Source: an uncultured Gammaproteobacteria bacterium
Lineage (GTDB): Bacteria; Patescibacteriota; Patescibacteriia; CAYZDG01
Reading direction: 5' to 3'
Assembly: GCA_964536515.1 (NCBI GenBank)
Contig: CAZHXI010000001.1
Coordinates: 31,480 to 95,479, forward strand
Length of the DNA: 64,000 bases
Positions 10,419 to 61,895 of this stretch are shown piece after piece. Every line of letters begins with the position of its first letter. The stretch's first letter is position 1. The translations under genes and the position numbers were made by a program. The notes under the pieces were generated by a model, which saw only the letters and a list, made by a program, of their open reading frames with translations, did not search any database and was not told the origin of the DNA.

Positions 10419-13400
10419 ATGCTTCGTCTGCCATTGAATTTCAGCTCACCTCGCTTCGCCCGAGGCGTCGCGGTTGCGATGCTGGCCCTGGTCGCTATCG
10501 TAGCTGTGCCGGTGGCGTTGCCGGGCGGGGGAGTGAGCGATTCGGCGCCGGTGCGGTCGGCGATCGGCGTAGCTACGGTGCACGCGGTTACCGATACTGA
10601 TATTCAGATGCAGGCCGAAGCCAGGGAGGCAGCGGCGAACAAGACCGATAGTGACTCGTGGTTCACCCGGGTCATCAAGGAGCTGATGTACGCCATTATC
10701 CAGTTCTTCGGCTACATGACCGGGCTGCTGTTCAAGGTGCTAGAGATGATTGCCCAGTACAACGGGTTCACCACCGAGCCGATCGTGGTGAAGGGCTGGA
10801 CCATAGTCCGGGACGTCTGCAACATGTTCTTCGTCTTCGCCATGCTGCTCATTGCCTTCGGCACCATACTGCGCATCCAGGCCTACCACTACCGCAGCCT
10901 GCTGTTCAAGGTCGTGCTGATGGCGGTGCTCATGAACCTTTCTAAGTCTATCGTCGGCGTGCTCATAGACCTTTCGCAGATCGTAATGCTTTCGTTCGTG
11001 AGCGGGTTCAAGCACATGGTGGCGGGCAGCCTGGCCCAGGCCTTTGGCGTGGATAAGATACTAAGGTTGGTACCAACTGACTCCGGCACTAACGCTGTTA
11101 CCGCTGGGCAGGTGAACGATGCTCTGGGCGCAACCGGCGGCGACGGCGTGGTTGCCAGCGCGGGTACGCTGCTGGCGTCGTTCATTCTGGCTGCGCTCAT
11201 CATGGCTCTCATCTTCATTACCGTTCTAGCCATTACGGTGCAGCTCATAGTACGTGTGATAAAGCTATGGATTCTCACCATCATGGCGCCCATCGCCTTC
11301 GCCGGAACCCTGTTCAAGGGCCTGGGCTCAATGGCCGGCAAGTGGTGGGACGAGCTGACCAAGGAGCTGGTGGCCGGCCCCACGCTGATGTTCTTCCTCT
11401 GGCTGGTGCTGGCTATTAGCTCGGCTAACAGCGGCGAGGTGTTCGGCGCCGGCAGCCATGCGGCCGGCTCGTTCAACCCGCTGAACCTGGAGGCTGCCAG
11501 CGCCGGGAACCTAGTGAACCTGTTCGTGGTAGTGGGCTTGCTGTGGGCCGGCTTGGGAGCAGCCAAGGCGGGCGGTACCGCCGCCGCAGGCGCGGTAGGC
11601 TTCGGCCTGGGCAAGCTATCGAGCATCAGCCGCGGCTCTGCTCGCCTGGCGGGGAAGGGGGCAGCGGGCGTGGGCCGCTTCGGCCAGCGCTGGGCTGCGC
11701 AGGGCCTGTCTAAGAGCGGTATCCAGGCGCGCTACGAGATGGCCAAGGAAGGCATTCGAGAGTCTACCGCTGGCAAAGCGGTGCGCTTCTTTGGCAAGGA
11801 GGCTACCGAGCAGCGTTGGGCTGCCCGTAAGGCGATACGTCGGGAGCGCATTCTGACGCACATGGATACCGCGGCGAAGTCCGCAGACCTCGCGGGCCAG
11901 CCGATTGGGTGGATTCAGTCTGCCCGCCGTAAGCGTGAGCAAAAGTGGCGCGTCGAGTCTAACGTGGCTACCGCCAAGTACATGAAGGAGCTAGACGAGC
12001 AGGGGATCAACGACAATGCCAGCATTAGGGCGGCGCTGGCTTCCAATATGAAGGACGGCAAGGTGCAGAACGTAGATAAGCAGGCGGCGCTGCTGCGCCA
12101 GCTGGCGAGCAAGGGCAAGGTTCTGGATGCTAATCGCGACATTATCGAGAACACGGCGGGTATGTCGGATGGCTCCCGTGCCGCGCTGCTCGCTGCCTTC
12201 AAGGACCACGACACCAGCGCCATTAAGAGCGACGGCAGCATCCGTTCCGACGCCGAGGTAATGGAGGAGATGGAGTCGGCCATGAAGGGCGACGCCGATC
12301 GCGGCGCCAAGAACAAGAGGGTACGCGGCATTGCTGCCAAGGTCCGTGTGGACGAGAGGGGCCAGGTTGCCAACTCGACAGCCATCGCGACCCTCCGCAA
12401 CCTGGATGAGGACTACATTGAGCCGCTCGATAAGAAGCTGAAGGACGATATTAAGGGGGCTATCCTGCTGACGATCCACAACGCCAACCAGAGTGGCGAC
12501 ACCCAGCTGCGGGATGAAATGGAGAAGAAGTACAATCAGCTGTTCGCCCAGGGAACCGACAAGCAGGGCAACGCCCTCCCCAAGCTTGAGCTAGACAAGG
12601 ATACCGGACAGGTGAAGGACGACGCCATGCGTGCCGTGCAGCAGAAGGCTGCACGCAAGCAGGAGCGTGACCAGATCAAGGAGGTCAGCATGAAGCGTGA
12701 TAGCCTGGTACCCCTAGATGAGGGCGAGAAGGCGCTGCAGAAGCTGGTAGCCGCCATTGATGGCGCTCCAAAGAAAATTGAAGAGCTAAGGACTAAACTT
12801 GCGGAGCTATCAACCATCGACACGTCAACGAAGGCGGGACGTGGTTGGCATAAGCAGGCTACCATCGACGTAGCTCGCATACAGAAGGAGCTCGTCGACG
12901 GCGCTGAAAAACAAACAAAGGATGAGAATGGAAATCGAAAACCTGAGTTTGTCTACCGTGGCAACGACGGCTCGGTGATCGATCCTGGCGTCCTAGTCAA
13001 TCGAATGCTTGGTGGTAACCTTGAGTCTAGGCTCGATGCTGTCCGTGAGGATGTAGCTTGGAGCAGGGCTCAGCCCGATGATTCTAAGCGTCTCGCGTCT
13101 GATCAATTGCAGGTAATCTCTGCTCGATTCAACCGCATTCATAAGGTGGCTCCCCCGAAGGGTCCAGCATCGGCAGGTAGCCCGTCAGGTCGAGCGACTG
13201 ATACAAGGTACCTCGCCGGAGAGTTCGTCCAGCCACGGCAGGCGGTGAGTAGCATCGCCGATCCTTTGGTCAGTAAGGCACAGGGGGCGGTGAGGCAGGC
13301 ATTCCAGCAGATCGATCAGGGCCAGCGCGTAGCGAAGCTGGAGCCGGTGCTTAAGGAGGTGCAGGGTGCGATAAAGCAGATGCTGACTATTGATAAGCTC

Positions 13401-13535
13401 GACGAGGTTCAGAAGGGTGCGCTCACCGATATAGCAAAGGAGGCTGAAGATCTGAGCGGCAAGCTCGCTACCGCATCCGAGGCGGATGTATCAGCGATTG
13501 TCACCAAGATCAGCAAGCTGAAGAACCTAGCCTAG
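10419..13535 (+). CDS. VirB6/TrbL-like polytopic membrane protein with a ~600 aa charged coiled-coil-like C-terminal extension
   Basis: Signal/TM, then 6 or more hydrophobic helices (FFVFAMLLIAFGTIL, LIMALIFITVLAITVQLIV, etc.), then a long K/E/D/A-rich hydrophilic tail. Immediately follows the giant protein (stop, 3 nt, ATG). Confidence 0.55.
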   Translation: MLRLPLNFSSPRFARGVAVAMLALVAIVAVPVALPGGGVSDSAPVRSAIGVATVHAVTDTDIQMQAEAREAAANKTDSDSWFTRVIKELMYAIIQFFGYMTGLLFKVLEMIAQYNGFTTEPIVVKGWTIVRDVCNMFFVFAMLLIAFGTILRIQAYHYRSLLFKVVLMAVLMNLSKSIVGVLIDLSQIVMLSFVSGFKHMVAGSLAQAFGVDKILRLVPTDSGTNAVTAGQVNDALGATGGDGVVASAGTLLASFILAALIMALIFITVLAITVQLIVRVIKLWILTIMAPIAFAGTLFKGLGSMAGKWWDELTKELVAGPTLMFFLWLVLAISSANSGEVFGAGSHAAGSFNPLNLEAASAGNLVNLFVVVGLLWAGLGAAKAGGTAAAGAVGFGLGKLSSISRGSARLAGKGAAGVGRFGQRWAAQGLSKSGIQARYEMAKEGIRESTAGKAVRFFGKEATEQRWAARKAIRRERILTHMDTAAKSADLAGQPIGWIQSARRKREQKWRVESNVATAKYMKELDEQGINDNASIRAALASNMKDGKVQNVDKQAALLRQLASKGKVLDANRDIIENTAGMSDGSRAALLAAFKDHDTSAIKSDGSIRSDAEVMEEMESAMKGDADRGAKNKRVRGIAAKVRVDERGQVANSTAIATLRNLDEDYIEPLDKKLKDDIKGAILLTIHNANQSGDTQLRDEMEKKYNQLFAQGTDKQGNALPKLELDKDTGQVKDDAMRAVQQKAARKQERDQIKEVSMKRDSLVPLDEGEKALQKLVAAIDGAPKKIEELRTKLAELSTIDTSTKAGRGWHKQATIDVARIQKELVDGAEKQTKDENGNRKPEFVYRGNDGSVIDPGVLVNRMLGGNLESRLDAVREDVAWSRAQPDDSKRLASDQLQVISARFNRIHKVAPPKGPASAGSPSGRATDTRYLAGEFVQPRQAVSSIADPLVSKAQGAVRQAFQQIDQGQRVAKLEPVLKEVQGAIKQMLTIDKLDEVQKGALTDIAKEAEDLSGKLATASEADVSAIVTKISKLKNLA

Positions 13536-17830: not shown

Positions 17831-17879
17831 TCCGCCGTTGGCGTACCCGCCGCGCGGCCGCTTGCCCCGTTCATAGAAC

Positions 17880-17909
17880 GGACGATTCGTGGTATAATTT
17901 TTTCGTTCT
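17880..17909 (+). promoter_or_regulatory. Extended -10 promoter (GACGATTCGTGGTATAATTTTTT), near-leaderless start of the second secretion-locus operon
   Basis: TGgTATAAT at 17890-17899; ATG at 17910 is 10 nt downstream. 19/22 identity with the motif at 2171-2192. Confidence 0.6.
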
Positions 17910-19004
17910 ATGCCTACCGAGAATGCCGCGAAAGAGCAGCCGGCGAGCGTGGCGCCCGCGTCATCGCTGGGCGTGGTCGTGAGGGGCAGCGACGGCAGCT
18001 TCCGCGTGTGGCAGGACGGCGAGTGGCGGCTGCTGGCCGCGGCTCCCGTGGTAGCGGCGCCGTCTAAGCCGACGTTCGGCGGCCCCAATGCCGCTAGCTA
18101 CTTCAGCGCAGCCGACGAGCAGGAGGCCCGCCGCCTAGCCCAGCGCCTAGATACCGCTCCCGAGCACAAGCGCTACTCCCTCGCGAAGATTATTGGGCAG
18201 GTGCAGGAGAGGGCTAAGGTGAGCATTGCCGGGCCTGCGGCGGACGCCTTCCGCCGTGCCGTGCTCACCTTCCTGCGGGGTACCCGGGGGCCGGTAGACT
18301 TCGGCGCCGTGCTGGTGCGTCCGGCTGACCAGGGCGGCGTGGGGCTGACGTCCGCTGAGTCGCAGGCGCTGGTGGCAATACTCTCCGTCATAGGCGACAA
18401 GGTCCGCGCCGAGGGCGGCGAGGTGGTGGATGACCCGGCGTTGAATCCGCCGGCCGCGGCGCCCGTGCCGCCGAAGCCGTCGGTCAAACCCGACGTAGAG
18501 ACGAGGCGCGCCTCGTCTCTACCGCCCGCGTCACCAACCCCCGTCGCACCCGTGCCGCCGCGGCCGATTGCGCCCCCTCTGCCCCGTCCCGCGGTTCCCC
18601 TGACGCCGCTCGCCAAGCCCCAGGCGGTGAACGACGTTCGTCCGGCTGCTCCAGCCGCGCGGGTAGCTCCACCCCGCCGCCTGGTTGGGCCGGTGGACGA
18701 GCTCCGCCAGATGGACATTGCCACCTTCCGTACGCTCGGCGCTACGCCGGCAGACCAGGCGAACGCCGTCGTGGCCAAGGTGCAGGCGCTCGGCCGGGAG
18801 TCGCTCACCCGGCACGCCGAGGGCCTGGCAGCCTGGCGTGAGTGCCCCGTGTACACCGCGTACCGCGCCATCGGCCTGCAGAGCATCCAGGGGGGCAAGC
18901 CCGTGGCCCAGGTCGTCGCCGAGCTGTTCCGTGACGGCAAGGCTACGCTGACCGAGGCTGAGTTCAACGCCGTGGCCGACGCCAACCGCCGGCTTCGCCT
19001 CTAG
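17910..19004 (+). CDS. Hypothetical protein with a central Pro-rich linker (secretion-locus associated)
   Basis: 364 aa; PAPVPPKPSVKP…PVAPVPPRPIAPPLPRPAVPLTPLAKP linker. Contains an in-frame copy of the palindromic repeat (encodes DVETRRASSLPP). Confidence 0.5.
   Translation: MPTENAAKEQPASVAPASSLGVVVRGSDGSFRVWQDGEWRLLAAAPVVAAPSKPTFGGPNAASYFSAADEQEARRLAQRLDTAPEHKRYSLAKIIGQVQERAKVSIAGPAADAFRRAVLTFLRGTRGPVDFGAVLVRPADQGGVGLTSAESQALVAILSVIGDKVRAEGGEVVDDPALNPPAAAPVPPKPSVKPDVETRRASSLPPASPTPVAPVPPRPIAPPLPRPAVPLTPLAKPQAVNDVRPAAPAARVAPPRRLVGPVDELRQMDIATFRTLGATPADQANAVVAKVQALGRESLTRHAEGLAAWRECPVYTAYRAIGLQSIQGGKPVAQVVAELFRDGKATLTEAEFNAVADANRRLRL
18495..18522. repeat. Palindromic repeat family copy 4, located inside a CDS
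   Basis: GTAGAGACGAGGCGCGCCTCGTCTCTAC, a 28-nt perfect palindrome within the Pro-rich linker of the 17910..19004 ORF. Confidence 0.7.
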
Positions 19005-19009
19005 CGCAT

Positions 19010-19483
19010 ATGGCCCAGCTGCAGCACTTCGTCGTCCCCCAGTTCATAGATATCGAGAGCAAGATTCTGGGGCCCATTACCACCCGGCAGTTCCTGTGGG
19101 TGCTGGGCGCCGGGCTCATTTTCTTCATCGCCCTGCGCACGCTGCCGGTGCCGGCCTTCATTGCCGTAGCGGTGCTGGATGTAGCCGTGTTCGGCAGCTT
19201 CGCCTTCGTGAAGGTGAACGGCCAGCTCTTCCATAACTTCCTGGTCAGCGCCATTGCCTTCGGGCGGCGGCCGAGGCTGTACCTATGGACCGCCGGGGTA
19301 GAGGATGACGGAGTTTCCGTTGCCGCCGTCAGCCCGGCGGAGGCGGTGGGCCAGCGTCCGCTGATTCCCGCCGGCAGGCTGAACGAGCTGGCGCTGCTGG
19401 TAGACACCGGCGGCACCTACCAGGCCGTGACCGCATTCAAGGAAATACCGCCTATCCCCGAAGACCATGTCCCCCAAGCCTAA
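19010..19483 (+). CDS. Small two-TM membrane protein, PrgI/VirB3-like position upstream of VirB4
   Basis: 157 aa; hydrophobic hairpin FLWVLGAGLIFFIALRTLPVPAFIAVAVLDVAVFGSFAFV. Gene-order analogy to Gram-positive T4SS (PrgI then PrgJ). Confidence 0.45.
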   Translation: MAQLQHFVVPQFIDIESKILGPITTRQFLWVLGAGLIFFIALRTLPVPAFIAVAVLDVAVFGSFAFVKVNGQLFHNFLVSAIAFGRRPRLYLWTAGVEDDGVSVAAVSPAEAVGQRPLIPAGRLNELALLVDTGGTYQAVTAFKEIPPIPEDHVPQA

Positions 19484-20141
19484 GCTAAAGAGGGCTCCTG
19501 CTGCCGCCGCGCTGCCGTTCTCGTACCTGCGCGAGGGCAGCGTCATCATGCGAGACGGCAGCCTGCGCGCGGTGCTGCTGGCGTCGTCCATAAACTTCTA
19601 CCTGAAGTCTGAGACCGAGCAGAACGCTATCGTCAGCGGCTACATCGGCTTCCTCAACACGCTCAGCTTCCCGCTGCAGATCGTCATTCAGTCGCGCCGG
19701 CTGAACATAGACGGCTACCTGGCGCAGCTCGAGACTCTGGAGCGGCAGCAGACCAACGAGCTGCTGCGGCTGCAGACGGCAGACTACCGGCAGTTCGTTA
19801 AGGAGCTTCTGGAGCTGGAGGATATTATGACCAAGCGCTTCTACGTGGTCGTGCCCTACGACCCGGCGGGGGATAAGACGCGCGGCTTCATCAGCCGGCT
19901 GACATCTGCCTTCTCGGCGCCGGCTGCGGTGGCGCTGCGCGAGGAGAAGTTCCGTCGGGCCTCGGAGGAGCTATCCAAGCGGGTGGCGCTGGTGCAGAGC
20001 GGCCTGGGCCAGATCGGCATAACCACGGCGGCGCTCGACACCCCCAGCTTGATAGAGCTGTACTACCGAACCTACAACCAGGAGGTAGCCGACGTGCAGC
20101 CGCTGTCGGCCGTCGGTAAGCTGCAGGTAGATGCTTCGTAG
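19467..20141 (+). CDS. Hypothetical protein, possibly the N-terminal domain of a split VirB4-like ATPase
   Basis: 224 aa; overlaps the upstream gene by 17 nt and the downstream VirB4-like gene by 11 nt out of frame. Combined 224+637 aa approximates full-length VirB4 size. Confidence 0.45.
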   Translation: MSPKPKLKRAPAAAALPFSYLREGSVIMRDGSLRAVLLASSINFYLKSETEQNAIVSGYIGFLNTLSFPLQIVIQSRRLNIDGYLAQLETLERQQTNELLRLQTADYRQFVKELLELEDIMTKRFYVVVPYDPAGDKTRGFISRLTSAFSAPAAVALREEKFRRASEELSKRVALVQSGLGQIGITTAALDTPSLIELYYRTYNQEVADVQPLSAVGKLQVDAS

Positions 20142-22044
20142 TATGGATGACGCCCCACGCTTCACCCCCGCAGACCTCAGCCGGTCCCCTCGTCCTTCTG
20201 ACTCGGGGCAGGCTCCCTCGGTTCCGGCTCCCGAGCGTCGCCAGCAGCAGGCTGCCCAGCTGGAGGCCGAGCAGGTCTACCGCCGCGGCGTGGTCTCGGT
20301 GCGCGAGCTGCTGGCGCCGCCCAGCTTCAAGGTTGACTCCAGCTTCGTGCAGCTCGGCGGGGTCTTCGCCCGGACCCTGTTCGTCAGCGCCTACCCCCGC
20401 TACCTGACGGTGGGCTGGTTCGCCAGCGTCATCAACTACAGCGCCACGTTGGATATCGCCATCTACTTCTACCCGCTCGCCGCCGACGTGGTTCTCAAGA
20501 AGATGCGCAAGAAGGTGGGCGAGCTGGAGGCGCAGCTGTCCGAAGACAGCGAGCACGGCGCCCCGCGCGACCCCGCCCGTGAGGCAGCGGTCCGCGACCT
20601 CGAGCAGCTCCGCGACGACCTGACGCAGGGAACCGAGCGGTTCTTCCAGGTCGGGCTGTACGTTACGCTCTACGCGCCGTCGGCGGCCGAGCTCAACCGG
20701 CTAACCGAGCGTATAGAGGGCGTCATCGGCAGCCGCCTGGTCTACACCAAGCGAGCCTTCTTCCAGGCCGAGCAGGGCTTCAATAGCACGCTGCCGCTCG
20801 CCGACGACGAGCTGGGGCTGCCGCTGAACCTGAACACCTCGCCGGCAGCCGCCAGCTTCCCGTTCACCTCGGCTGACCTCACCGGCGACAGCGGCATCAT
20901 GTACGGCATCAACCGGCACAACAATAGCCTCATCATCTTCGACCGGTTCTCGCTGCAGAACGCCAACATGGTGGTGTTCGCCACGGCCGGCAGCGGCAAG
21001 AGCTACGCGGTGAAGCTAGAGATCCTGCGCAGCCTGATGCTGGGCACCGACGTCATCGTCATCGACCCCGAGATGGAGTACCGCCACCTGTGCGAGGCGG
21101 TGGGCGGCACGTACATCAACGTATCGCTTACGGCCGACACCAAGATCAACCCGTTCGACCTGCCGGCGGCGGCCCCGGGCGGCGAGACCAAGGCCTCCGA
21201 CGTCATCCTGACCGCCGTCATCGCCATCAAGGGCCTGCTGCGGCTGATGGTGGGCGGCCTGACCCCGCAGGAGGATTCGCTGCTCGACCGCGCCATCCTC
21301 GAGACGTACGCCAAGAACGACATTACCCCCAGCGCCGACCTGACCAAGGTTACCGCGCCGCTCATGTCCGACCTGGTGCAGGTGCTGGGCGGCCTCACCG
21401 GCGGCGAGAGCATTGTGCAGCGGCTGGTGAAGTACACCTCGGGCACCTTCTCGGGCCTGTTCAATGCCCCCACCAACGTGCGCCTCTCCAACCAGCTGGT
21501 CGTCTTCTCGGTCCGCGACCTGCAGGACGAGCTGCGGCCGCTCGCCATATACAACATTATCCTGTTCATTTGGAGCGTCGTGCGCAGCGAGCTGAAGAAG
21601 CGGCTGCTTGTAATCGACGAGGCCTGGTGGCTTATGCAGTATGAGGACTCAGCTCGGTTCATCTACGCCCTGGTGAAGCGCTGCCGCAAGTACTACCTGG
21701 GCATCACCACCATTACCCAGGACGTGCAGGACTTCCTCAAGTCGCCCTACGGCCCCGCCATCATCAATAACTCAGCCCTGGCGCTGCTGATGCGCCAGCA
21801 CCCCAACGCCATTAGCATGGTGCAGCAGTCCTTTTTGCTCACCGAGGGCGAGAAGTACCTGCTGCTCGAGGCGAACGTGGGCGAGGGTATATTCTTCGCC
21901 GGCAGCCGCCACGCCGCCGTTAAGGTCATGGCCTCCTACGGCGAGGACCAGCTGATTACCACCGATCCGCGCCAGCTGCTGGAGATTGAGCACGCCAAGC
22001 AGGCCTTCGCCCAGGCGCAGGATGCGGCGAAGCCTAACAGTTGA
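20131..22044 (+). CDS. VirB4/TrbE/PrgJ-like type IV secretion ATPase
   Basis: Walker A VVFATAGSGKSY, then IDPEMEY, Walker B LLVIDEAWWLM, then TQDVQDF, the typical VirB4/TraC family motif order. Low-complexity ~80 aa N-terminus. Confidence 0.8.
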   Translation: MLRSMDDAPRFTPADLSRSPRPSDSGQAPSVPAPERRQQQAAQLEAEQVYRRGVVSVRELLAPPSFKVDSSFVQLGGVFARTLFVSAYPRYLTVGWFASVINYSATLDIAIYFYPLAADVVLKKMRKKVGELEAQLSEDSEHGAPRDPAREAAVRDLEQLRDDLTQGTERFFQVGLYVTLYAPSAAELNRLTERIEGVIGSRLVYTKRAFFQAEQGFNSTLPLADDELGLPLNLNTSPAAASFPFTSADLTGDSGIMYGINRHNNSLIIFDRFSLQNANMVVFATAGSGKSYAVKLEILRSLMLGTDVIVIDPEMEYRHLCEAVGGTYINVSLTADTKINPFDLPAAAPGGETKASDVILTAVIAIKGLLRLMVGGLTPQEDSLLDRAILETYAKNDITPSADLTKVTAPLMSDLVQVLGGLTGGESIVQRLVKYTSGTFSGLFNAPTNVRLSNQLVVFSVRDLQDELRPLAIYNIILFIWSVVRSELKKRLLVIDEAWWLMQYEDSARFIYALVKRCRKYYLGITTITQDVQDFLKSPYGPAIINNSALALLMRQHPNAISMVQQSFLLTEGEKYLLLEANVGEGIFFAGSRHAAVKVMASYGEDQLITTDPRQLLEIEHAKQAFAQAQDAAKPNS

Positions 22045-22056
22045 TAGACTGCAGCT

Positions 22057-22620
22057 ATGGACCGCCGCCGCATGGTGATCATCTCCGGAGCAGCCCTGCT
22101 CGCCATCGTCGCCGTGGTGCTGTGGCTGGTGCTCCGGGGTAGCCCGACCACGCCTCCGCCGGCTGGAGTAACGCCCACGACCACGCCAGAGGATACCTCC
22201 AATCTGCCGCCGCCGGTCAGCACGCCGACGACCCCCGAGCCCGACCGGACCGGGGCGGTGGTAGCGGCACGCGTCTGGGCCGAGCGGTTCGCCAGCTGGT
22301 CTAACGAGGATGGCTTCACCAACCTGCAGCAGCTGGGTAGCCAGTCGACCGCCCAGGTTCAGTCTTTCCTGGCCACCTACCGCCAGCAGCTGCAGCAGCG
22401 GTACCCGGTGGCCGATGGCTACCGCGGCGTAACCGGCCGGGCGCTCTCGCCCAAGCTAGACGCCTTCGATGCAGGCGCCGGCACGGCCCAGGTGAGCGTG
22501 GCCATGCAGCTGGCCGAGAGCACGTCTACATCGCCCACGGTGTACAACCGTACGCTGGACTTACGCCTGCTGCGCAGCGGCGAGGCGTGGCTGGTGGACT
22601 ACGTGAAGTGGGAGGAGTAA
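22057..22620 (+). CDS. Membrane-anchored protein (N-terminal TM, Pro/Thr linker, ~120 aa globular domain); VirB8-like role is speculative
   Basis: MVIISGAALLAIVAVVLWLVL TM, then PTTPPPAGVTPTTTPEDTS linker. Confidence 0.4.
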   Translation: MDRRRMVIISGAALLAIVAVVLWLVLRGSPTTPPPAGVTPTTTPEDTSNLPPPVSTPTTPEPDRTGAVVAARVWAERFASWSNEDGFTNLQQLGSQSTAQVQSFLATYRQQLQQRYPVADGYRGVTGRALSPKLDAFDAGAGTAQVSVAMQLAESTSTSPTVYNRTLDLRLLRSGEAWLVDYVKWEE

Positions 22621-23084
22621 TGCCGACCGAGGAAGAGAAGTTAGTAGCGGATGCCGAACGGCAGCAACGTCGGCAGTCGCAGGCTGCGGCCGAGAGCGAG
22701 AAGCCCAGCGGGGCGGGCGAGGCGATCGGGGGCATAGTCGCCAAGGTTTCGCCCACGGCAGCGGCGCTCCAGTTCGCCTGGAGGTTCTACCTGCCCTCGT
22801 TCACCCTCACGTCCATCTACATTGTGCTGCACATCTTGCTGCGGTACGTATTCCAGTTCAAACTCTTCTGTCGAGCAGATGAGGGCTCTCCCCTGGGGGG
22901 AGTCGGCAAGTCGGCGGCCTCAGCGTTCGGCGCGGGTGGCGGGACGAGCGAGAAGGCTTGGATTGCCCTCGGCCTTGCCTCGGGTCTGCCGCTGGCGTTC
23001 GCCTGCGTTCTCCTGTACGCCATTGCCTACGCCATGGAGCACCCGCTATCTACGCTGTACGCGTTGCTGACCGGCAACCTATAG
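22620..23084 (+). CDS. Small polytopic membrane protein
   Basis: Start ATG overlaps the upstream stop (TAATG); 2-3 hydrophobic helices (FTLTSIYIVLHILLRYVF; IALGLASGLPLAFACVLLYAIAYA). Confidence 0.4.
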   Translation: MPTEEEKLVADAERQQRRQSQAAAESEKPSGAGEAIGGIVAKVSPTAAALQFAWRFYLPSFTLTSIYIVLHILLRYVFQFKLFCRADEGSPLGGVGKSAASAFGAGGGTSEKAWIALGLASGLPLAFACVLLYAIAYAMEHPLSTLYALLTGNL

Positions 23085-23120
23085 CGAGACGGCGCTCGGG
23101 CTTTACGCTACACTAATTCC

Positions 23121-24299
23121 ATGTCAAACCTGCGGCGGATTCTGCTCTCACTGGCGTTGCTGGCCGCAGCTGGAGCCATGGGCTTCGGCCTCTACTGGCT
23201 CTTCTTCCGCGTGCCTACGCCCTCGCCGGTAACGCCGCCCCCCGGCGCCGGCGGAGGACAGTTCCCGCCGTCGGGGCAGGGCGGCGGAGGCACGGCCGCT
23301 ACCGGCACCGGCCGGTTCCCCATTACCCCGGCCGACGGCGTCGGGCCGTACGTTACAGCTAGCACCACGGATGGCGTAGCCGGCGCCGTAGCTGCCCCGG
23401 ACGGTAGCATCCGCTACTACGATTCCATCCGCAAGCAATTCGTTAACCTAGCTGCCGACGGCAGCATTCAGCCGCTCTCGCCCGACCGATTCTTCGGCGT
23501 CTCCGACGTTACCTGGGCGCCCGGCAATTCTCGCGCGGTCGTGGCCTACCCGGACGGCAGCAAGGTGCTGTACGATTTCGCCACCCAGCAGCAGTCCACC
23601 CTGCCGCGTGCCATGCAGGACGTCTCCTTTGACCCCTCCGGCACCAAGCTAGCTAGCCTGTACCTCGGCTCGACCAAGGAGGAGCAGTGGCTGGTAACCT
23701 CCAACGCCGACGGCAGCCAGATTCAGCTGGTGGAGCCGGTCGGCGGAAAGGTGAACAACTTCAAGCCCAGCTGGTCGCCGAGCGGCCAGATTGTGGGGCT
23801 GTTCGCCGAGGCGGTAGACGGCGAGCGTCAGGAGGTGGTGCCCATCGGCCGTAACGGCGAGAACTTCCGCTCATTCGTGGCGCCCGGCCGCGGATTCACC
23901 GCCGAGTGGTCGCCCTCGGGCGAGCGTATCCTCTACAGCGTGTTCAACTCGGCTAGCCAGGGCCGGCCCGAGCTGTACCTAGCCGACGGCCGCGCCGATA
24001 CCTTCGGCGCGAACAGCACCAGCCTGGGGCTATCTACCTCTGCCGACTGGTGCTCATTCTCGGGAGGCAGCGTGTACTGCGCGGCGCTCGACACACCGCC
24101 GGCCCTGCTGGGTTCGTACCCCGAGCTGGCGCAGGGGCAGGCGTCGTCGCTGTGGCGAATAGACCTAGCCAGCGGCCAGCGCACCCGGGTCGCCCAGCTG
24201 CCGCAGGGCTTTACCCCCAGCCGGGTAACCGCCGACGCCGGCGGCGTGTACGTAGCCGACCAGTCTACCGGACGTCTCTATGCTGCGCCGACGCGGTAG
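23121..24299 (+). CDS. TolB-like (PD40/WD40-like) beta-propeller protein with N-terminal membrane anchor
   Basis: N-terminal TM, then repeated YPDGSKVLYDF / SWSPSGQIVGLF / EWSPSGERILYSV PD40-type repeats. Confidence 0.5.
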   Translation: MSNLRRILLSLALLAAAGAMGFGLYWLFFRVPTPSPVTPPPGAGGGQFPPSGQGGGGTAATGTGRFPITPADGVGPYVTASTTDGVAGAVAAPDGSIRYYDSIRKQFVNLAADGSIQPLSPDRFFGVSDVTWAPGNSRAVVAYPDGSKVLYDFATQQQSTLPRAMQDVSFDPSGTKLASLYLGSTKEEQWLVTSNADGSQIQLVEPVGGKVNNFKPSWSPSGQIVGLFAEAVDGERQEVVPIGRNGENFRSFVAPGRGFTAEWSPSGERILYSVFNSASQGRPELYLADGRADTFGANSTSLGLSTSADWCSFSGGSVYCAALDTPPALLGSYPELAQGQASSLWRIDLASGQRTRVAQLPQGFTPSRVTADAGGVYVADQSTGRLYAAPTR

Positions 24300-25365
24300 C
24301 CTGCTCTTGCTCGCCGCGCTCGCCACGCTGGCGGTAGCCGTGGGCACATCCGCCGTGGCAACGGCGCAGACTTCGGGCCCGAGCAACAGCAGCGGCCAGG
24401 TTGAATTCTGGCCCAGCATCTACTTCCCGGGGCTGGAGCAGATCGAGGGCGTTAGGCAGGATACTGCGACGGGGCGGTACTCCGTAACCGTTACGCCAAC
24501 TACCCTCGGCGAGTACATCGTTGCGCTGTACAAGTTCTTCACCGGGGCAACGGCCATCGTGGCCATGTTCATGGTTACCTACGGAGGGCTGCTGTGGCTC
24601 CTCGCCGGCGGCAACCAGGGCAGCATCAGCCACGCCAAGGAGGTCATTACCGGGGCTATCGCCGGCATGGTCATTGCGCTGCTGTCGTACGCGCTGCTGG
24701 CTACCATCAGCCGGGGGCTGGTGGAGTTCAAGAGCCTAGACACCAGGCTGGAGGCGAGGCTGGGGCAGGATAGTACCTCGTCCGGCCCAGACCTGGGCTG
24801 CGCGAATCCGCAGTTCCAGGACATCATCACCACGGACGCCATAGACGCTACCAGCGGCGGCGCCTCGTTTACCTGCGCCAACATCGGCGCAGTCGAGTCG
24901 CTGGTGGTTGCGGCGCAGAATACCTTCGATCAGACGAATAGACGGGTGCTGCTGACCAGCGCCTACAGGTCTCGTACCAGGCAGGAGCAGCTCTACGATG
25001 AGAACACGCGCAATAGCGCCTGCCGTCGAGACCACCCCGCAGACTGGAAGACCCAGTGCGGCTCGGGCGACGCCACCCCGCCCACCTGTAACCCGTGGCT
25101 ATCTCGGGGCTGCCCCCACACCACCGGCTACGCCCTAGACGTCCGCTGCTCTGGGCAGCCTGAGTACGGCGAGTGCCAGCTCGCCCTGGAGCAGAGCATG
25201 ATCGAGCAGGGTTTCTGTAGGCTGGCGAATGAGACCTGGCACTTCGAGAAGCCTCCGGTCTCATCCAACTGCGTCGGCGGCCCCGTTGACGGCACCGGCT
25301 ACCGCAGCGGCTGCCCCACTTGCTGCAATAGTTTGACCAACGAGCACTGCGAGGGAAGAGAGTGA
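24280..25365 (+). CDS. Fusion of a VirB2/TrbC-pilin-like N-terminal module with a C-terminal M15 (VanY-like) zinc D,D-peptidase (peptidoglycan hydrolase)
   Basis: Signal peptide, then VAMFMVTYGGLLWLLAGGNQGSISHAKEVITGAIAGMVIALLSYALL (TrbC/VirB2-like). C-terminal SAYRSRTRQEQLY…CPHTTGYALDV…ETWHFE (S-x-H-x(n)-D … W-H-[FY]-E M15 motifs). Confidence 0.55.
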   Translation: MLRRRGSLLLLAALATLAVAVGTSAVATAQTSGPSNSSGQVEFWPSIYFPGLEQIEGVRQDTATGRYSVTVTPTTLGEYIVALYKFFTGATAIVAMFMVTYGGLLWLLAGGNQGSISHAKEVITGAIAGMVIALLSYALLATISRGLVEFKSLDTRLEARLGQDSTSSGPDLGCANPQFQDIITTDAIDATSGGASFTCANIGAVESLVVAAQNTFDQTNRRVLLTSAYRSRTRQEQLYDENTRNSACRRDHPADWKTQCGSGDATPPTCNPWLSRGCPHTTGYALDVRCSGQPEYGECQLALEQSMIEQGFCRLANETWHFEKPPVSSNCVGGPVDGTGYRSGCPTCCNSLTNEHCEGRE

Positions 25366-25421
25366 AGCCGGTAGCGCTCTGGAATAAAGAAGAGCAGCGG
25401 CCGTTGGGCCGCTGCTGTTCG

Positions 25422-25868
25422 TTACTTCTGCTTCGTTACTACACGCTGGGGTACAGCATTGCGCTGCATATTCCAGGCGCTGGTCATGCTCGTATCGACG
25501 AAGATTTTTGAGTGGGGACCCAGGTGGTCACGGTGCACTAGGCACCTGTTGCATGCGTCCCTGTCGGTTGCCACAACGGCAAAGTCGTGGTCTTCTCCAT
25601 CGTCAGATGAGACACGGACCACGCCAATGCACTGTAGCGTGCTGCCGTATTGCTCGCAGAGTTCGGCGAGTTCACGTGGCGACTGGGGCGAGGGGTGCGT
25701 AATGTTCACGGTTAGCCTGCTGTCGCGGACCACGTGCTCTCGCAGCTCTCCCCTCGGGGTTGGCAGCGCCTCATTGATGCGAACCTGACTGACGCCCGCC
25801 CCAAATAGGCGAGTTCGTACGAAGCTTTGCAGCCCCTCTCCTGGGGCCACTGGAATGAAAGAATCCAT
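25422..25868 (-). CDS. Hypothetical protein in a lower-GC island
   Basis: Start at internal ATG (MDSFIPVAPG…); no recognisable motifs. Region 25380-26190 is visibly lower GC, with an AT-rich upstream tract at 25860-25990. Confidence 0.35.
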   Translation of the reverse strand: MDSFIPVAPGEGLQSFVRTRLFGAGVSQVRINEALPTPRGELREHVVRDSRLTVNITHPSPQSPRELAELCEQYGSTLQCIGVVRVSSDDGEDHDFAVVATDRDACNRCLVHRDHLGPHSKIFVDTSMTSAWNMQRNAVPQRVVTKQK

Positions 25869-26193
25869 TTTTTCTGCTCGGTTTTTTGTTTTTCGGTTTT
25901 GAAAATCGAGATAGTTTCCGCCACCTTTCCGTTGGCGGTTTAGTTTCGGGTTATATATTTGAAGTCTTGTAGGGGTTAATTTTGGGTCGGCCGGGGCGCC
26001 GGGCAGCGGAACCGAAAACCGCTGCCCGGTGCTGGCGGCGCACGGAAAACTCGATGGCGTTTGTAGCTTTCGCGGCGAACACGGCACAGCGTGCTCCCGA
26101 CCGACCCTTAGTGAGTTGAACTCAGATCATTCCCTTAGGAATTCAATGAGCTTACGCCAGGATAGTGCTACTAAGCTTAAGAAATGTCAAGCC

Positions 26194-30003: not shown

Positions 30004-30492
30004 ATGTCCAACGACTCACCGCGAACGCCCAGCACAGCCCAGGACGTCTTCCTGCACCTGGGGATATTCGTAACCCTGTACACGGCCGTCATCAGCCTCG
30101 GCGGCGTAGTCTTCCAGCTCATCAATAAGCTGGTGCCAGACCCGCTGGTCAGCCGCTACCCGTCCTACGCCGAGGGCATTAGCCAGGCGCTGCGTATCTC
30201 GGTGGCGTCTCTGGTCGTCGCCGTGCCGCTCTGCCTGTGGCTGGGGGCGATTGCCGCGCGGCAGCTGCGGCAGGAGCCAGCTAAGCTGCGGCTGGGAATT
30301 CGCCGCGGACTCATCTACTTCACGCTGTTCGTCGCCGGGGCCGTGATGATGGTTACCCTCATCACCGTCGTGAATAGCCTGCTGGGCGGCGACCTAGAGG
30401 CCCGCTTCATCCTCAAGGCTCTGACCATTCTCGTCTTGGGCGGCGCCACCTTCGGCTACCATATGTGGGAGGTTAAGCAGCACGGGGTATGA
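30004..30492 (+). CDS. Hypothetical polytopic membrane protein
   Basis: 162 aa with 4 hydrophobic helices. Confidence 0.4.
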   Translation: MSNDSPRTPSTAQDVFLHLGIFVTLYTAVISLGGVVFQLINKLVPDPLVSRYPSYAEGISQALRISVASLVVAVPLCLWLGAIAARQLRQEPAKLRLGIRRGLIYFTLFVAGAVMMVTLITVVNSLLGGDLEARFILKALTILVLGGATFGYHMWEVKQHGV

Positions 30493-33332: not shown

Positions 33333-34106
33333 ATGAGCCGAACGATTGCCATCGTCAACCAGAAGGGCGGGGTGCGCAAGACCACTTCGGCCGTTACCAG
33401 GAGCCCAGCACTGGCCCGCCCGGGTTTCCGCGTGCTGCTGGTCGACGCAGACCCGCAGGGCAACGCTACGTCAGGCCTGGGCATAAACCCGCACGAGCTT
33501 CCGCACAGCCTGTACGATGTGATCGCCGAGGGGCCGACCACCGTCGCCGACGTACGGCTAGGCACGACCGTAGACAAGCTGCACGTGGTGCCCGCGCGGC
33601 CCGACCTAGCCGGGGCCAACGTAGAGCTGGTGGGCATGCCCGAGCGAGAGTTCCGCCTGCACCGGGCCCTGCAGCCGATTGCGGATGACTACGACTTCAT
33701 CATCATAGACAATCCTCCGTCTCTCGGCTTGTTGACCATCAACGGGCTGGTAGCGGCCCACGACGTGCTGATTCCCGTGCAGTGCGAGTACTACGCGCTG
33801 GAGGGGCTGGGCCAGCTGCTGCGCACGGTGGAGCTGGTCCGCAGCAACCTCAAGCCGGACCTCAACATACTCGGCGCTGTGATGACCATGTACGACGGCC
33901 GCAATAAGCTCAGCGAGGCGGTGTTCAACGAGCTGTACCAGTACTTCCCCAACCGCATCTTCCGCACCGTCATTCCGCGGACGGTCCGCTTGGCCGAGGC
34001 GCCCTCGCACGGGCAGGACATTGGCGTGTACGAGCCCGAGGGTAGGGCCGCCCGCGCCTACGGCAAGCTGGCCCAGGAGGTAGCTGCGGCGTACAGGGGC
34101 TGGTAG
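33333..34106 (+). CDS. parA: ParA/Soj chromosome partitioning ATPase
   Basis: Deviant Walker A AIVNQKGGVRKTT; VLLVDADPQGNATS; IIIDNPPSLG. Confidence 0.85.
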   Translation: MSRTIAIVNQKGGVRKTTSAVTRSPALARPGFRVLLVDADPQGNATSGLGINPHELPHSLYDVIAEGPTTVADVRLGTTVDKLHVVPARPDLAGANVELVGMPEREFRLHRALQPIADDYDFIIIDNPPSLGLLTINGLVAAHDVLIPVQCEYYALEGLGQLLRTVELVRSNLKPDLNILGAVMTMYDGRNKLSEAVFNELYQYFPNRIFRTVIPRTVRLAEAPSHGQDIGVYEPEGRAARAYGKLAQEVAAAYRGW

Positions 34107-34107
34107 G

Positions 34108-34173
34108 GGGAGGACTGAGGACGCAGGACTTAGGACATAGAACCCCAATCGTTTCCCGTCCTATGTCCTAAGT
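34108..34173. repeat. Heptameric direct repeats (gaGGAC tgaGGAC gcaGGAC ttaGGAC atagAAC) overlapping a 13-bp inverted repeat (ACTTAGGACATAG … CTATGTCCTAAGT, 20-nt spacer) between parA and parB
   Basis: Read directly from 34108-34173. Confidence 0.6.
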
Positions 34174-34196
34174 TCTGTTTCCTGTATTCTACCTGC

Positions 34197-35069
34197 ATGG
34201 CATCACCACTCGGCCGAGGACTGGGCGCAATCATTCCCTCGGCGAACCCTGTCCCGACTACCCCCGCTCCGGCCGTCGTTGCGCCGTCATCCGACGACCA
34301 GGTGTTACACCTGGCGCTGGGGCAATTGAAGCCAAACCCCCACCAGGCTCGCCAGGTATTCGACCCCGCCAGCCTGGATGAGCTGGTTTCGTCCATCCGT
34401 GAGCACGGCATTCTGGTGCCGCTCGTCGTTACCCCGACCGGGGACGGCTCGTACTACATTGTGGCGGGGGAGCGGCGGTTCCGCGCCGCTGGCCAGGCCG
34501 GGCTAGACACCGTGCCCGCCATTGTGCGGCAGGCCTCGGACCTGCAGCGCATGGAGCTGGGCCTAATCGAGAACATCCAGCGCACCGACCTGAACGCCGT
34601 TGAGCTCGCGCACGCCTACCAGAAGCTGGCAGACGAGTTCTCGCTGACGCAGGAGCAGATAGCGCAGAAGGTGGGCAAGGCGCGCCCCTCGGTGGCCAAC
34701 ACGCTGCGCGTGCTGCAGCTGCCGGACGAGGTCCAGCACGCCATAGCGGACGGCAAGATTACGTTCGCCCACGCCAAGGTGCTGCTCTCCACGCCCGAGG
34801 CCGAGCGCGACGCGCTGTTCCGCAAGATGCTGTCTGGCCAGCTATCGGTCCGTGCCTCGGCTATGGCAGCCGAGCCCAGCACCATCGTGCACAGCCACCG
34901 ACGCCGCAGGGGCAAGAGCCCGCAGCTGCAGGAGCTAGAGAAGCAGCTGCAGGATAAGCTGGGTACCAAGGTGCGCATCGGCGCCCAGGGCAACGGCGGC
35001 GAGATTAGCGTTACCTACTACGACCAGGCGGAGCTGGCGCGCATCAGCCGCCAGCTGCTGGGGGAGTGA
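34197..35069 (+). CDS. parB: ParB/Spo0J chromosome partitioning protein
   Basis: LVPLVVTP…YYIVAGERRFRAAGQAGLDTVPAIV ParB box; HTH region; C-terminal dimerisation segment. Confidence 0.85.
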   Translation: MASPLGRGLGAIIPSANPVPTTPAPAVVAPSSDDQVLHLALGQLKPNPHQARQVFDPASLDELVSSIREHGILVPLVVTPTGDGSYYIVAGERRFRAAGQAGLDTVPAIVRQASDLQRMELGLIENIQRTDLNAVELAHAYQKLADEFSLTQEQIAQKVGKARPSVANTLRVLQLPDEVQHAIADGKITFAHAKVLLSTPEAERDALFRKMLSGQLSVRASAMAAEPSTIVHSHRRRRGKSPQLQELEKQLQDKLGTKVRIGAQGNGGEISVTYYDQAELARISRQLLGE

Positions 35070-56758: not shown

Positions 56759-56781
56759 ATCAATCCGAGATTGGAATTGTA

Positions 56782-56811
56782 CGTAGAGACGAGGCGCGCC
56801 TCGTCTCTACG
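56782..56811. repeat. Palindromic repeat family copy 5 (CGTAGAGACGAGGCG|CGCCTCGTCTCTACG)
   Basis: 30-nt perfect palindrome downstream of yqeY; acts as terminator and/or insulator before the giant adhesin promoter. Confidence 0.7.
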
Positions 56812-56860
56812 GCGTTTGGCATCGCCACGCACCGCCGCCGTGCGTAGCCCTGCGGAGGGT

Positions 56861-56881
56861 ATAGGTGGTATCATTGACGTC
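56861..56881 (+). promoter_or_regulatory. Extended -10 promoter AGGTGGTATCATTGACGTC, leaderless start of the giant adhesin gene
   Basis: TGgTATCAT at 56866-56874; ATGATG at 56882 is 7 nt downstream. Confidence 0.5.
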
Positions 56882-61873: not shown

Positions 61874-61895
61874 CAGCCTGTACACTTAATCACCA

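Follow-up and report, generated by a model that had tools for sequence, protein, structure and literature searches.

A T4SS_pilin-family hairpin fused to a predicted cell-wall peptidase in a VirB4 operon of Patescibacteria

Patescibacteria carry type IV secretion systems (T4SSs) that are devoid of DNA-transfer parts and that, together with their pilins, are essential for epibiotic growth (PMC10633639, PMC12102498). The described systems, surveyed by Quinonero-Coronel et al. (2025, PMC12102498), are chromosomal, lie near parAB and are built around a PrgI - TrsD-like - VirB4 core; in the cluster of Southlakia epibionticum (SEML1_0006-0019; Wang et al. 2023, PMC10633639), the pilins are an array of small stand-alone proteins. 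Immediately downstream of VirB4, this species encodes two further essential proteins: SEML1_0007, 1113 amino acids (aa) long with a C-terminal Hedgehog/DD-peptidase domain, and SEML1_0006, a lysozyme/cysteine-protease protein (PMC10633639). In the majority of Patescibacteria that have VirB2-like genes no VirB1 can be detected, and other hydrolases may substitute for it (PMC12102498). Here, we analyse a 64,000-nt stretch of contig CAZHXI010000001.1 ("the window"), deposited as an uncultured Gammaproteobacteria bacterium and placed by GTDB in the Patescibacteriota, in which the last gene of a VirB4 operon (open reading frame A, ORF A) joins a hairpin of the T4SS_pilin family (PF18895) to a domain resembling M15 peptidases. 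With somewhat better than even confidence, we read its product as a hairpin-anchored extracytoplasmic peptidoglycan peptidase that would serve the T4SS as a wall-remodelling enzyme.

The hairpin-peptidase fusion

ORF A comprises the following parts (coordinates refer to the window):

24280-25365, + strand: ORF A, 361 aa; signal peptide, T4SS_pilin hairpin, linker and LAS/M15B zinc peptidase
24280-24366, + strand: Sec-type signal peptide, aa 1-29 (MLRRRGS, a hydrophobic core, then ATA before a Q), called from sequence and hydropathy, with cleavage predicted between ATA and Q
24496-24732, + strand: helical hairpin of the T4SS_pilin family, aa 73-151; the loop GGNQGSISHAKE is predicted to be cytoplasmic
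24767-25375, + strand: exchangeable C-terminal cassette, from the M15 domain through the stop codon; occupied by an SLT domain in the orthologous locus L003 (10500-11118)
24967-25242, + strand: M15 catalytic core, with R230 (24967-24969), H280 (25117-25119), D287 (25138-25140), E318 (25231-25233) and H321 (25240-25242)

An earlier note, written from the letters of the window alone, had given exactly these outer coordinates, which enclose an intact ORF, and had described a signal peptide followed by a hydrophobic hairpin motif, found in ORF A as TYGGLLWLLAGGNQGSISHAKEVITGAIAGMVIALLSYALLA. Hydropathy peaks at residues 8-26 (signal peptide) as well as 80-98 and 122-140 (transmembrane (TM) helices), and AlphaFold (AF2) places helices at 73-110 and 116-151 on either side of the loop, with a modest predicted local distance difference test score (pLDDT) of 55-69 over the hairpin. 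Helix 1 is preceded by ~45 conserved residues (…F-x-PSIYFPGLE…), and the linker …GLVEFKSLDTRLEA… connects TM2 to a 200-aa C-terminal domain with 14 cysteines.

Pfam aligns PF18895 to aa 75-136 of ORF A (E=1.9e-4) at 21.8 bits, or 25.5 bits for the isolated module, below the gathering score of 26.6 bits; across the family, the same model matches 104 of 118 full-length representatives (best E 2e-17) and all 24 isolated hairpins (best E 9e-13). By these profile comparisons, the N-terminal module of ORF A is a true T4SS_pilin member. The possibility of an ordinary signal-anchor was rejected on account of the consistent PF18895 matches and the conserved flanking motifs.

The family is called VirB2-like in the Patescibacteria T4SS literature (PMC12102498, PMC10633639, PMC12857230). 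The claim that the hairpin is typical of conjugative pilins holds as far as PF18895 membership goes; direct homology to VirB2/TrbC (PF04956) is only weak. PF04956 is the second commonest Pfam match among the isolated hairpins (11/24, best E only ~1e-3), and hhalign of the hairpin against five genuine plasmid VirB2/TrbC sequences returned a probability of 3.9% (E=0.011) over 50 columns in helix-loop-helix register. Sequence-profile searches of the PDB found no pilin with the hairpin and nothing useful with the full ORF A family. Like TrbC/VirB2 pilins, ORF A combines a signal peptide with two hydrophobic helices and a short Gly-rich loop bearing a conserved Lys (K120), and is encoded together with VirB3 and VirB4. 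Unlike VirB2, whose mature form of ~70-75 aa has nothing attached, it has the conserved residues before helix 1 and ~210 aa of enzyme after helix 2. For comparison, mature TrbC/VirB2 pilins measure ~70-120 aa with nothing past helix 2, and the other hairpin protein of the window, ORF B, continues for ~635 aa beyond that point.

The topology signals of ORF A (signal peptide, helix in, helix out) predict a C-terminal domain outside the cytoplasm. Such a position agrees with the many cysteines and with the DsbA/Thioredoxin_4 gene that lies directly upstream in other lineages. The domain qualifies as a LAS fold and carries the motifs S227-A-Y-R230-S…Q235, C-P-H280-T-T-G-Y-A-L-D287 and E318-T-W-H321-F-E, in which H280, D287 and H321 are the zinc ligands, E318 the catalytic Glu and R230 the substrate Arg, so that the set is complete. 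We take its SxxR(S)...Q element to be the VanY/LdcB substrate-carboxylate motif. The earlier note had written the signature as S-x-H...D...W-H-F-E; the zinc ligands, Glu and Arg are indeed present, with C-P-H280 in place of S-x-H. Among the best 150 representatives of a profile search (see below), the five catalytic residues occur together in 141; H280, D287, E318 and H321 are each kept in 141-146, which includes the H/D/H ligands singled out by that note, and the Arg and Gln in 146 and 143, respectively. Pfam VanY reaches a sub-threshold 20.9 bits on ORF A itself (gathering score 25); among the 118 representatives, VanY matches 53 (best 4e-8) and Peptidase_M15 32 (best 1.2e-10). Judged from the retained catalytic residues and from the VanY and Peptidase_M15 matches across relatives, the domain is most likely an active, divergent M15B-like peptidoglycan peptidase. 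The reading as a dead enzyme was rejected, as all five catalytic residues are conserved.

Divergence from characterised enzymes is considerable: the domain is only 12-22% identical to the M15B enzymes VanY, VanXY and LdcB and to the M15C endolysins Ply500 and LysB4. Unlike these enzymes, ORF A features a ~45-aa Cys-rich insertion between the Arg motif and the first His, its 14 cysteines and the fusion to a pilin-family hairpin. The same Cys-rich M15 subtype ends hairpin-less giant proteins of 1997-2395 aa in three other loci (L021 1217-7207, L027 1822-9006, L036 4520-11704), which resemble Southlakia SEML1_0007 with its C-terminal DD-peptidase fold.

The operon and its described counterparts

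ORF A ends an eight-gene + strand operon (17910-25365) whose genes overlap or are separated by at most 13 nt, apart from a single larger gap of 36 nt before the propeller gene; the ATG of ORF A lies within that gene, overlapping it by 20 nt. The remaining features of the operon are:

17870-17898, + strand: sigma-70-like promoter candidate (TTCATA-17-TATAAT with TG) directly upstream of the first gene; a consensus match only
17910-19004, + strand: "geneX", 364 aa, soluble with a Pro-rich centre; no Pfam match, syntenic in L001, L003 and L046
19010-19483, + strand: PrgI family protein (VirB3-like), 157 aa, one strong TM; Pfam PrgI E=4.3e-9, above cut-off
19467-20141, + strand: TraC-like/TrsD-like protein, 224 aa, related to the VirB4 N-terminal region; orthologues carry PF26593 (TraC-like)
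20131-22044, + strand: VirB4-type T4SS ATPase, 637 aa; Pfam P-loop_TraG E=9.8e-29, AAA_10 and DUF87
22057-22620, + strand: bitopic membrane protein, 187 aa, with a conserved C-terminal domain
22587-23084, + strand: small 2-TM membrane protein, 165 aa as listed; conserved in L001, L003 and L004
23121-24299, + strand: membrane-anchored 7-bladed beta-propeller, 392 aa; TM 3-29, disordered Gly/Pro linker, PD40/tricorn-like propeller
25393-25416, no strand assigned: GC-rich hairpin with a 10-bp stem just past the ORF A stop, between convergent genes; conserved in L003

The gene at 19467-20141 occupies the position of TrsD in Patescibacteria T4SSs (PMC12102498). For the 187-aa bitopic protein, a VirB8-like role is possible; a PDB sequence-profile search with it found no match. 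The propeller is of the tricorn/DPP-IV type; its AF2 model (pLDDT 81.7) retrieves tricorn (1k32) in Foldseek with E=1.4e-11. The GC-rich hairpin at 25393-25416 is probably a bidirectional terminator. The listed GTG start of the 2-TM protein (22587) overlaps the preceding gene by 34 nt and an internal Met stands at residue 12, and the first 11 listed residues are probably untranslated.

With the Patescibacteria T4SSs described so far (PMC10633639, PMC12102498), the operon shares the PrgI - TrsD-like - VirB4 core, the PF18895 hairpin, a LAS/DD-peptidase-fold protein encoded after VirB4 and a chromosomal location, here between S6 and RecG. A Pfam scan of the operon detected neither a relaxase nor a coupling protein, as in those systems. 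ParA/ParB genes lie at 33333-35069 (+), ~8-10 kb downstream, which suggests that the operon is close to the replication origin and fits the tendency reported for Patescibacteria T4SSs.

It departs from the Southlakia arrangement in several respects. Whereas the Southlakia pilins form a stand-alone array, the only pilin-type hairpin of the window operon is fused to a peptidase (to an SLT domain in a sister genome). This holds for the related operons too: none contains another T4SS_pilin-type hairpin, and even a search with relaxed settings (E<=1, HMMER filters switched off) turned up no stand-alone small pilin, either there or in the window. The DD-peptidase domain of Southlakia ends a protein of 1113 aa, unlike the 361-aa fusion described here, and the constant membrane-anchored beta-propeller partner is a feature of the hairpin::hydrolase loci that Southlakia does not share. 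Neither PMC10633639 nor PMC12102498 nor their supplements mention a hairpin::hydrolase fusion.

A cell-wall hydrolase encoded inside a T4SS operon is also known from PrgK (pCF10), TraG (pIP501), TcpG (pCW3) and VirB1. The Gram-positive members PrgK, TraG and TcpG likewise combine an N-terminal membrane anchor with an extracytoplasmic catalytic domain. These hydrolases employ SLT, CHAP or LytM domains and a single-pass anchor, whereas ORF A has an M15B/LAS domain, a cleavable signal peptide and a two-helix hairpin.

Cassette exchange, relatives and other hairpin proteins

Comparison with close relatives revealed a sharp boundary behind the linker. In blastn alignments of the window with L003, homology extends to 24766, is then interrupted, and sets in again at 25376, first in the terminator hairpin and later in RecG; at the protein level (BLASTP), ORF A and its L003 counterpart are 83% identical over aa 1-162 (through …FKSLDTRLEA), with nil similarity afterwards. 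P0007, P0009, P0010 and the L004 protein share the N-terminal 160 residues of ORF A (70-83% identity for the first three) and end in SLT, the domain scoring above cut-off in P0007, P0010 and the L004 protein (E=4e-11 to 6e-12); ORF A itself has no SLT match in Pfam. The enzymatic domain is thus an exchangeable cassette between the conserved linker and the terminator. That SLT, the catalytic type of VirB1, substitutes at the orthologous position argues that the operon slot may be meant for a cell-wall hydrolase in general. Beyond the terminator, the interval up to RecG (25420-25914) has no DNA similarity to L003, with flanks 82-87% identical; this position, which looks like a variable spot, is occupied in relatives by a small gene on the minus strand (153-165 aa).

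An initial word-index search had returned only ten relatives of ORF A. At E-value limits of 1e-3, 1e-10 and 1e-30, an exhaustive profile search retrieved 13,567, 3,425 and 105 representatives, respectively. The majority of the best 150 match the profile over both the hairpin and the peptidase, and 139 of these 150 have the hairpin occupied and all catalytic residues in place, which amounts to at least 139 clusters at 50% identity. By this measure the hairpin::M15 architecture is widespread, and the earlier description of it as unusual does not hold.

Genomic context was compared in metagenome loci, 38 of which had been selected by a degenerate DNA pattern for GFCR[LI]xxExWHFE and are therefore biased to this M15 subtype. 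Operon gene order is identical in L001/L002 (P0004) and L003 (P0007), and L046 repeats it with one inserted DsbA gene, its fusion being only 34% identical to ORF A. The ORF A counterpart is the last gene of the VirB4 operon in L001, L003 and L046, as in the window, and in L028 the fusion and a convergent VirB4 cluster are ~8 kb apart. Where a locus extends far enough, the propeller gene mostly stands directly upstream of the hairpin::hydrolase gene (L013, L015, L018, L019, L022, L025, L028-L030, L032, L037, L038 and L046). A DsbA/Thioredoxin_4 gene, absent from the window operon, is found between propeller and hairpin::M15 in loci of more distant lineages, namely L013 (10001-10669), L038 (2033-2668) and L046 (9329-9994).

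A scan of GTDB genomes yielded only one short locus, L004 (CAYZDG010000061.1), a 4.1-kb contig with the propeller and a hairpin::SLT gene; this contig, binned as 'uncultured Gammaproteobacteria', is probably mis-binned. Some relatives come from 0.1-0.2 um groundwater filtrates; this origin, the presence of PF18895, DUF5671 and PrgI-TrsD-VirB4, and homologues named 'Candidatus Falkowbacteria' or 'Patescibacteria group' all point to a Patescibacteria affiliation of the window.

The second hairpin protein had been interpreted as a paralog of ORF A that would provide an interchangeable tip with Big/IPT-like repeats. It is located at the far end of the window:

56771-61873, + strand: fn3/Ig-rich surface protein, 1700 aa, directly upstream of ORF B with a 21-nt gap
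61895-64000, + strand: ORF B, cut by the window end; signal peptide, T4SS_pilin hairpin (aa 40-108, 62012-62218), Big_5 (aa 317-383, 62843-63043) and a weak TIG (63656-63832)

The start had been given as 61896, off by one. In full length, ORF B has 745 aa (P0181, 100% identical), with hydropathy peaks at 4-22, 49-67 and 81-99. Its T4SS_pilin match (39.8 bits) is above cut-off; of the proposed repeats, Big_5 is well supported (E=9e-15), TIG only weakly (E=0.05). Homology of the ORF A and ORF B hairpins is evident from their direct alignment (34% identity over 74 aa, E=5e-11) and from the match of the ORF A family profile to ORF B (hidden Markov model E=5.9e-10); a profile search found the two to be the sole such modules in the window.

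The genomic setting speaks against tips that replace each other within a single system. ORF B is encoded 37 kb from ORF A, in a surface-protein locus of the order LepB - HisS - (222-aa ORF) - YqeY - 1700-aa fn3/Ig protein - ORF B; on the contig of this genome (L052), a 1392-aa Big_5/PKD protein comes next. The order LepB - HisS - YqeY - hairpin::Big_5 recurs in L053 (816-kb contig), and 26 of 28 ORF B homologues are hairpin::Big_5 proteins, including some named Candidatus Falkowbacteria and Patescibacteria group. No T4SS genes were found near the ORF B locus; a position beside VirB4/VirB3 of a Patescibacteria-type T4SS, as expected of PF18895 members, is thus seen for ORF A and not for ORF B. 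As the two loci are separate and independently syntenic, with hairpins only 34% identical, the idea of interchangeable tips was rejected. The real modularity is that of M15 versus SLT at one locus, together with hairpins fused to many other ectodomains elsewhere.

Two such ectodomain proteins stand out. In L053 (9901-17880), a protein of >2660 aa combines a T4SS_pilin hairpin close to the N-terminus with Big_5, Big_7 and TIG domains further on, an architecture that hardly suits a polymerising major pilin. In L024 (9398-11281), a GDSL lipase/acylhydrolase domain lies N-terminal to the T4SS_pilin hairpin, the opposite order to ORF A, and the gene adjoins one for a 784-aa hairpin::M15 protein. 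Besides GDSL lipase, the hairpin is fused elsewhere to domains without a known match. Given its fusion to M15, SLT, Big_5, GDSL lipase and other domains, the hairpin appears to be a general modular handle in these bacteria.

Competing explanations for ORF A and further observations

In the reading we favour, ORF A would be a disulfide-rich LAS/M15B (VanY/LdcB-like) zinc peptidase whose presumed substrates are peptidoglycan stem peptides, most likely cleaved as a carboxy- or endopeptidase. Its signal-peptide-dependent two-helix PF18895 hairpin would hold the enzyme at the outer face of the cytoplasmic membrane and, with ORF A co-transcribed last in the order geneX - PrgI/VirB3 - TrsD-like - VirB4 - bitopic - 2-TM - propeller - ORF A, would localise it to the T4SS or its pilin pool. 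Functionally, such a protein would correspond to VirB1, or to PrgK and TraG, the anchored hydrolases of Gram-positive T4SSs, with an enzymatic domain that could be either an M15 peptidase or an SLT lytic transglycosylase. The earlier note had proposed a VirB1-like function tethered to the pilus base. The first part is reasonable because the gene sits in a VirB4/PrgI operon, and it is reinforced by the SLT-swapped orthologue; the pilus base is a location that we can only infer, as neither a pilus nor a stand-alone pilin is evident in the operon.

Several observations weigh against a dedicated T4SS enzyme. ORF A by itself stays below the Pfam gathering thresholds for hairpin and peptidase alike, and its hairpin is at best weakly related to canonical VirB2/TrbC. 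Proteins without an obvious T4SS link, namely Ig-rich ones (including that of >2660 aa) and a GDSL lipase, are anchored by this hairpin too, which may be a general membrane anchor. Linkage of the fusion to VirB4 is frequent, not universal, because L013, L019, L038 and the P0167 locus (964-kb contig) have no VirB4 within ~8 kb of the fusion; there, the block reads propeller - DsbA - hairpin::M15 - hairpin::SLT - RadA - RecG, with ClpB/LemA/M48 upstream instead of T4SS genes.

This latter arrangement, in which the block lies between ClpB and RadA/RecG, is an argument for an autolysin of the housekeeping kind, which we regard as unlikely overall, though less so than the other alternatives. The propeller, the DsbA protein where present, and the hairpin::M15 and hairpin::SLT proteins would then constitute a general module of peptidoglycan maturation or turnover for growth and division, the hairpin would be a mere anchor and the adjacency to VirB4 historical. 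The RadA/RecG neighbourhood is kept even where T4SS genes are present, the hairpin is joined to unrelated ectodomains in non-T4SS loci, and a VanY/LdcB-type carboxypeptidase plus an SLT enzyme is a typical housekeeping pair. Such a history sits poorly with the tight same-strand linkage to VirB4, with overlapping genes, across lineages down to 34% identity, or with the proximity in L028; moreover, the hairpin family is otherwise seen as pilin arrays in essential T4SS clusters, and Southlakia offers a parallel case, with M15 and lysozyme proteins encoded right behind VirB4.

The modularity of the hairpin could alternatively point to display on the cell surface. In one version, which we consider improbable, the hairpin polymerises or is dislocated by VirB4, and the enzyme, carried on the fibre or tip of the T4SS, cuts the wall of the host bacterium during epibiotic attachment, with SLT, lipase and Ig adhesins as alternative payloads. 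The essentiality of T4SS and pilins for epibiotic growth in systems without DNA-transfer parts would suit this role, as would the facts that ORF A holds the operon's only pilin-type module, that the hairpin is fused to varied envelope-active or adhesive domains and that the M15/SLT cassette is exchanged between close relatives. VirB2 has both its N- and C-terminus outside, a topology compatible with such display. Packing a subunit of this kind in a helical pilus is, however, sterically doubtful, and within the literature that we searched, on PF18895 and Patescibacteria T4SSs, we know of no VirB2-type pilin bearing a domain of 200 to 2600 aa. The low pLDDT of the hairpin and its weak VirB2 homology also count against a weapon, and the uniformly conserved catalytic residues give no sign of target-driven diversification in the enzyme core. 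A broader version, to which we assign a comparably small chance, sees the VirB2-like hairpin as a general export and display handle: VirB4, VirB3 and TrsD would pull hairpin proteins from the membrane into a surface fibre that presents M15, SLT, GDSL lipase and giant Ig adhesins, with which the cell would hold on to the host envelope and break through it. If true, the Patescibacteria T4SS would be an enzyme- and adhesin-displaying pilus and not an injector of DNA or effectors.

Finally, ORF A could be a pro-pilin with a removable domain, in which cleavage in the linker after TM2 frees a soluble hydrolase and a small mature pilin, comparable to the C-terminal trimming of RP4 TrbC. C-terminal processing is established for TrbC/VirB2 pilins, the operon is without a stand-alone pilin, and the linker is invariant in the M15 and SLT versions and forms the exact recombination junction. 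Structural or junctional constraints explain the linker conservation equally well, a recognisable TraF-like protease is not present in the operon, and the reading is purely inferential; we hold it to be very improbable.

A wall-remodelling enzyme of the T4SS, our preferred reading, would offer a concrete candidate for the cell-wall enzyme that seems to be missing from Patescibacteria T4SSs: VirB1-type hydrolases may be hidden within proteins scored as VirB2. PF18895 matches are not all small pilins, as many have an M15 or SLT hydrolase fused to the hairpin and often share an operon with VirB4. The use of the hairpin as a handle for enzymes and adhesins would also make the role of the Patescibacteria T4SS more directly testable. 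The components and the system as such were already known; for the direct hairpin-M15/SLT fusion, the constant propeller (and DsbA) partners and the cassette exchange, no description was found in the literature searched.

Elsewhere in the window, two giant ORFs lie back to back on the + strand (2757-10415 and 10419-13535; 2552 and 1038 aa, no Pfam match), behind the gene for a small protein (2105-2755) that has bacterial TSP3 repeats. The window has a G+C content of 65% overall, unusually high for Patescibacteria, and of 61-68% throughout; as the L028 relative with the same operon goes down to 42%, the lineage spans a wide range of composition. A DUF5671 protein, typical of genomes of the candidate phyla radiation, is encoded at 30004-30492 (+; E=5.9e-21) and occupies the same place in L001.

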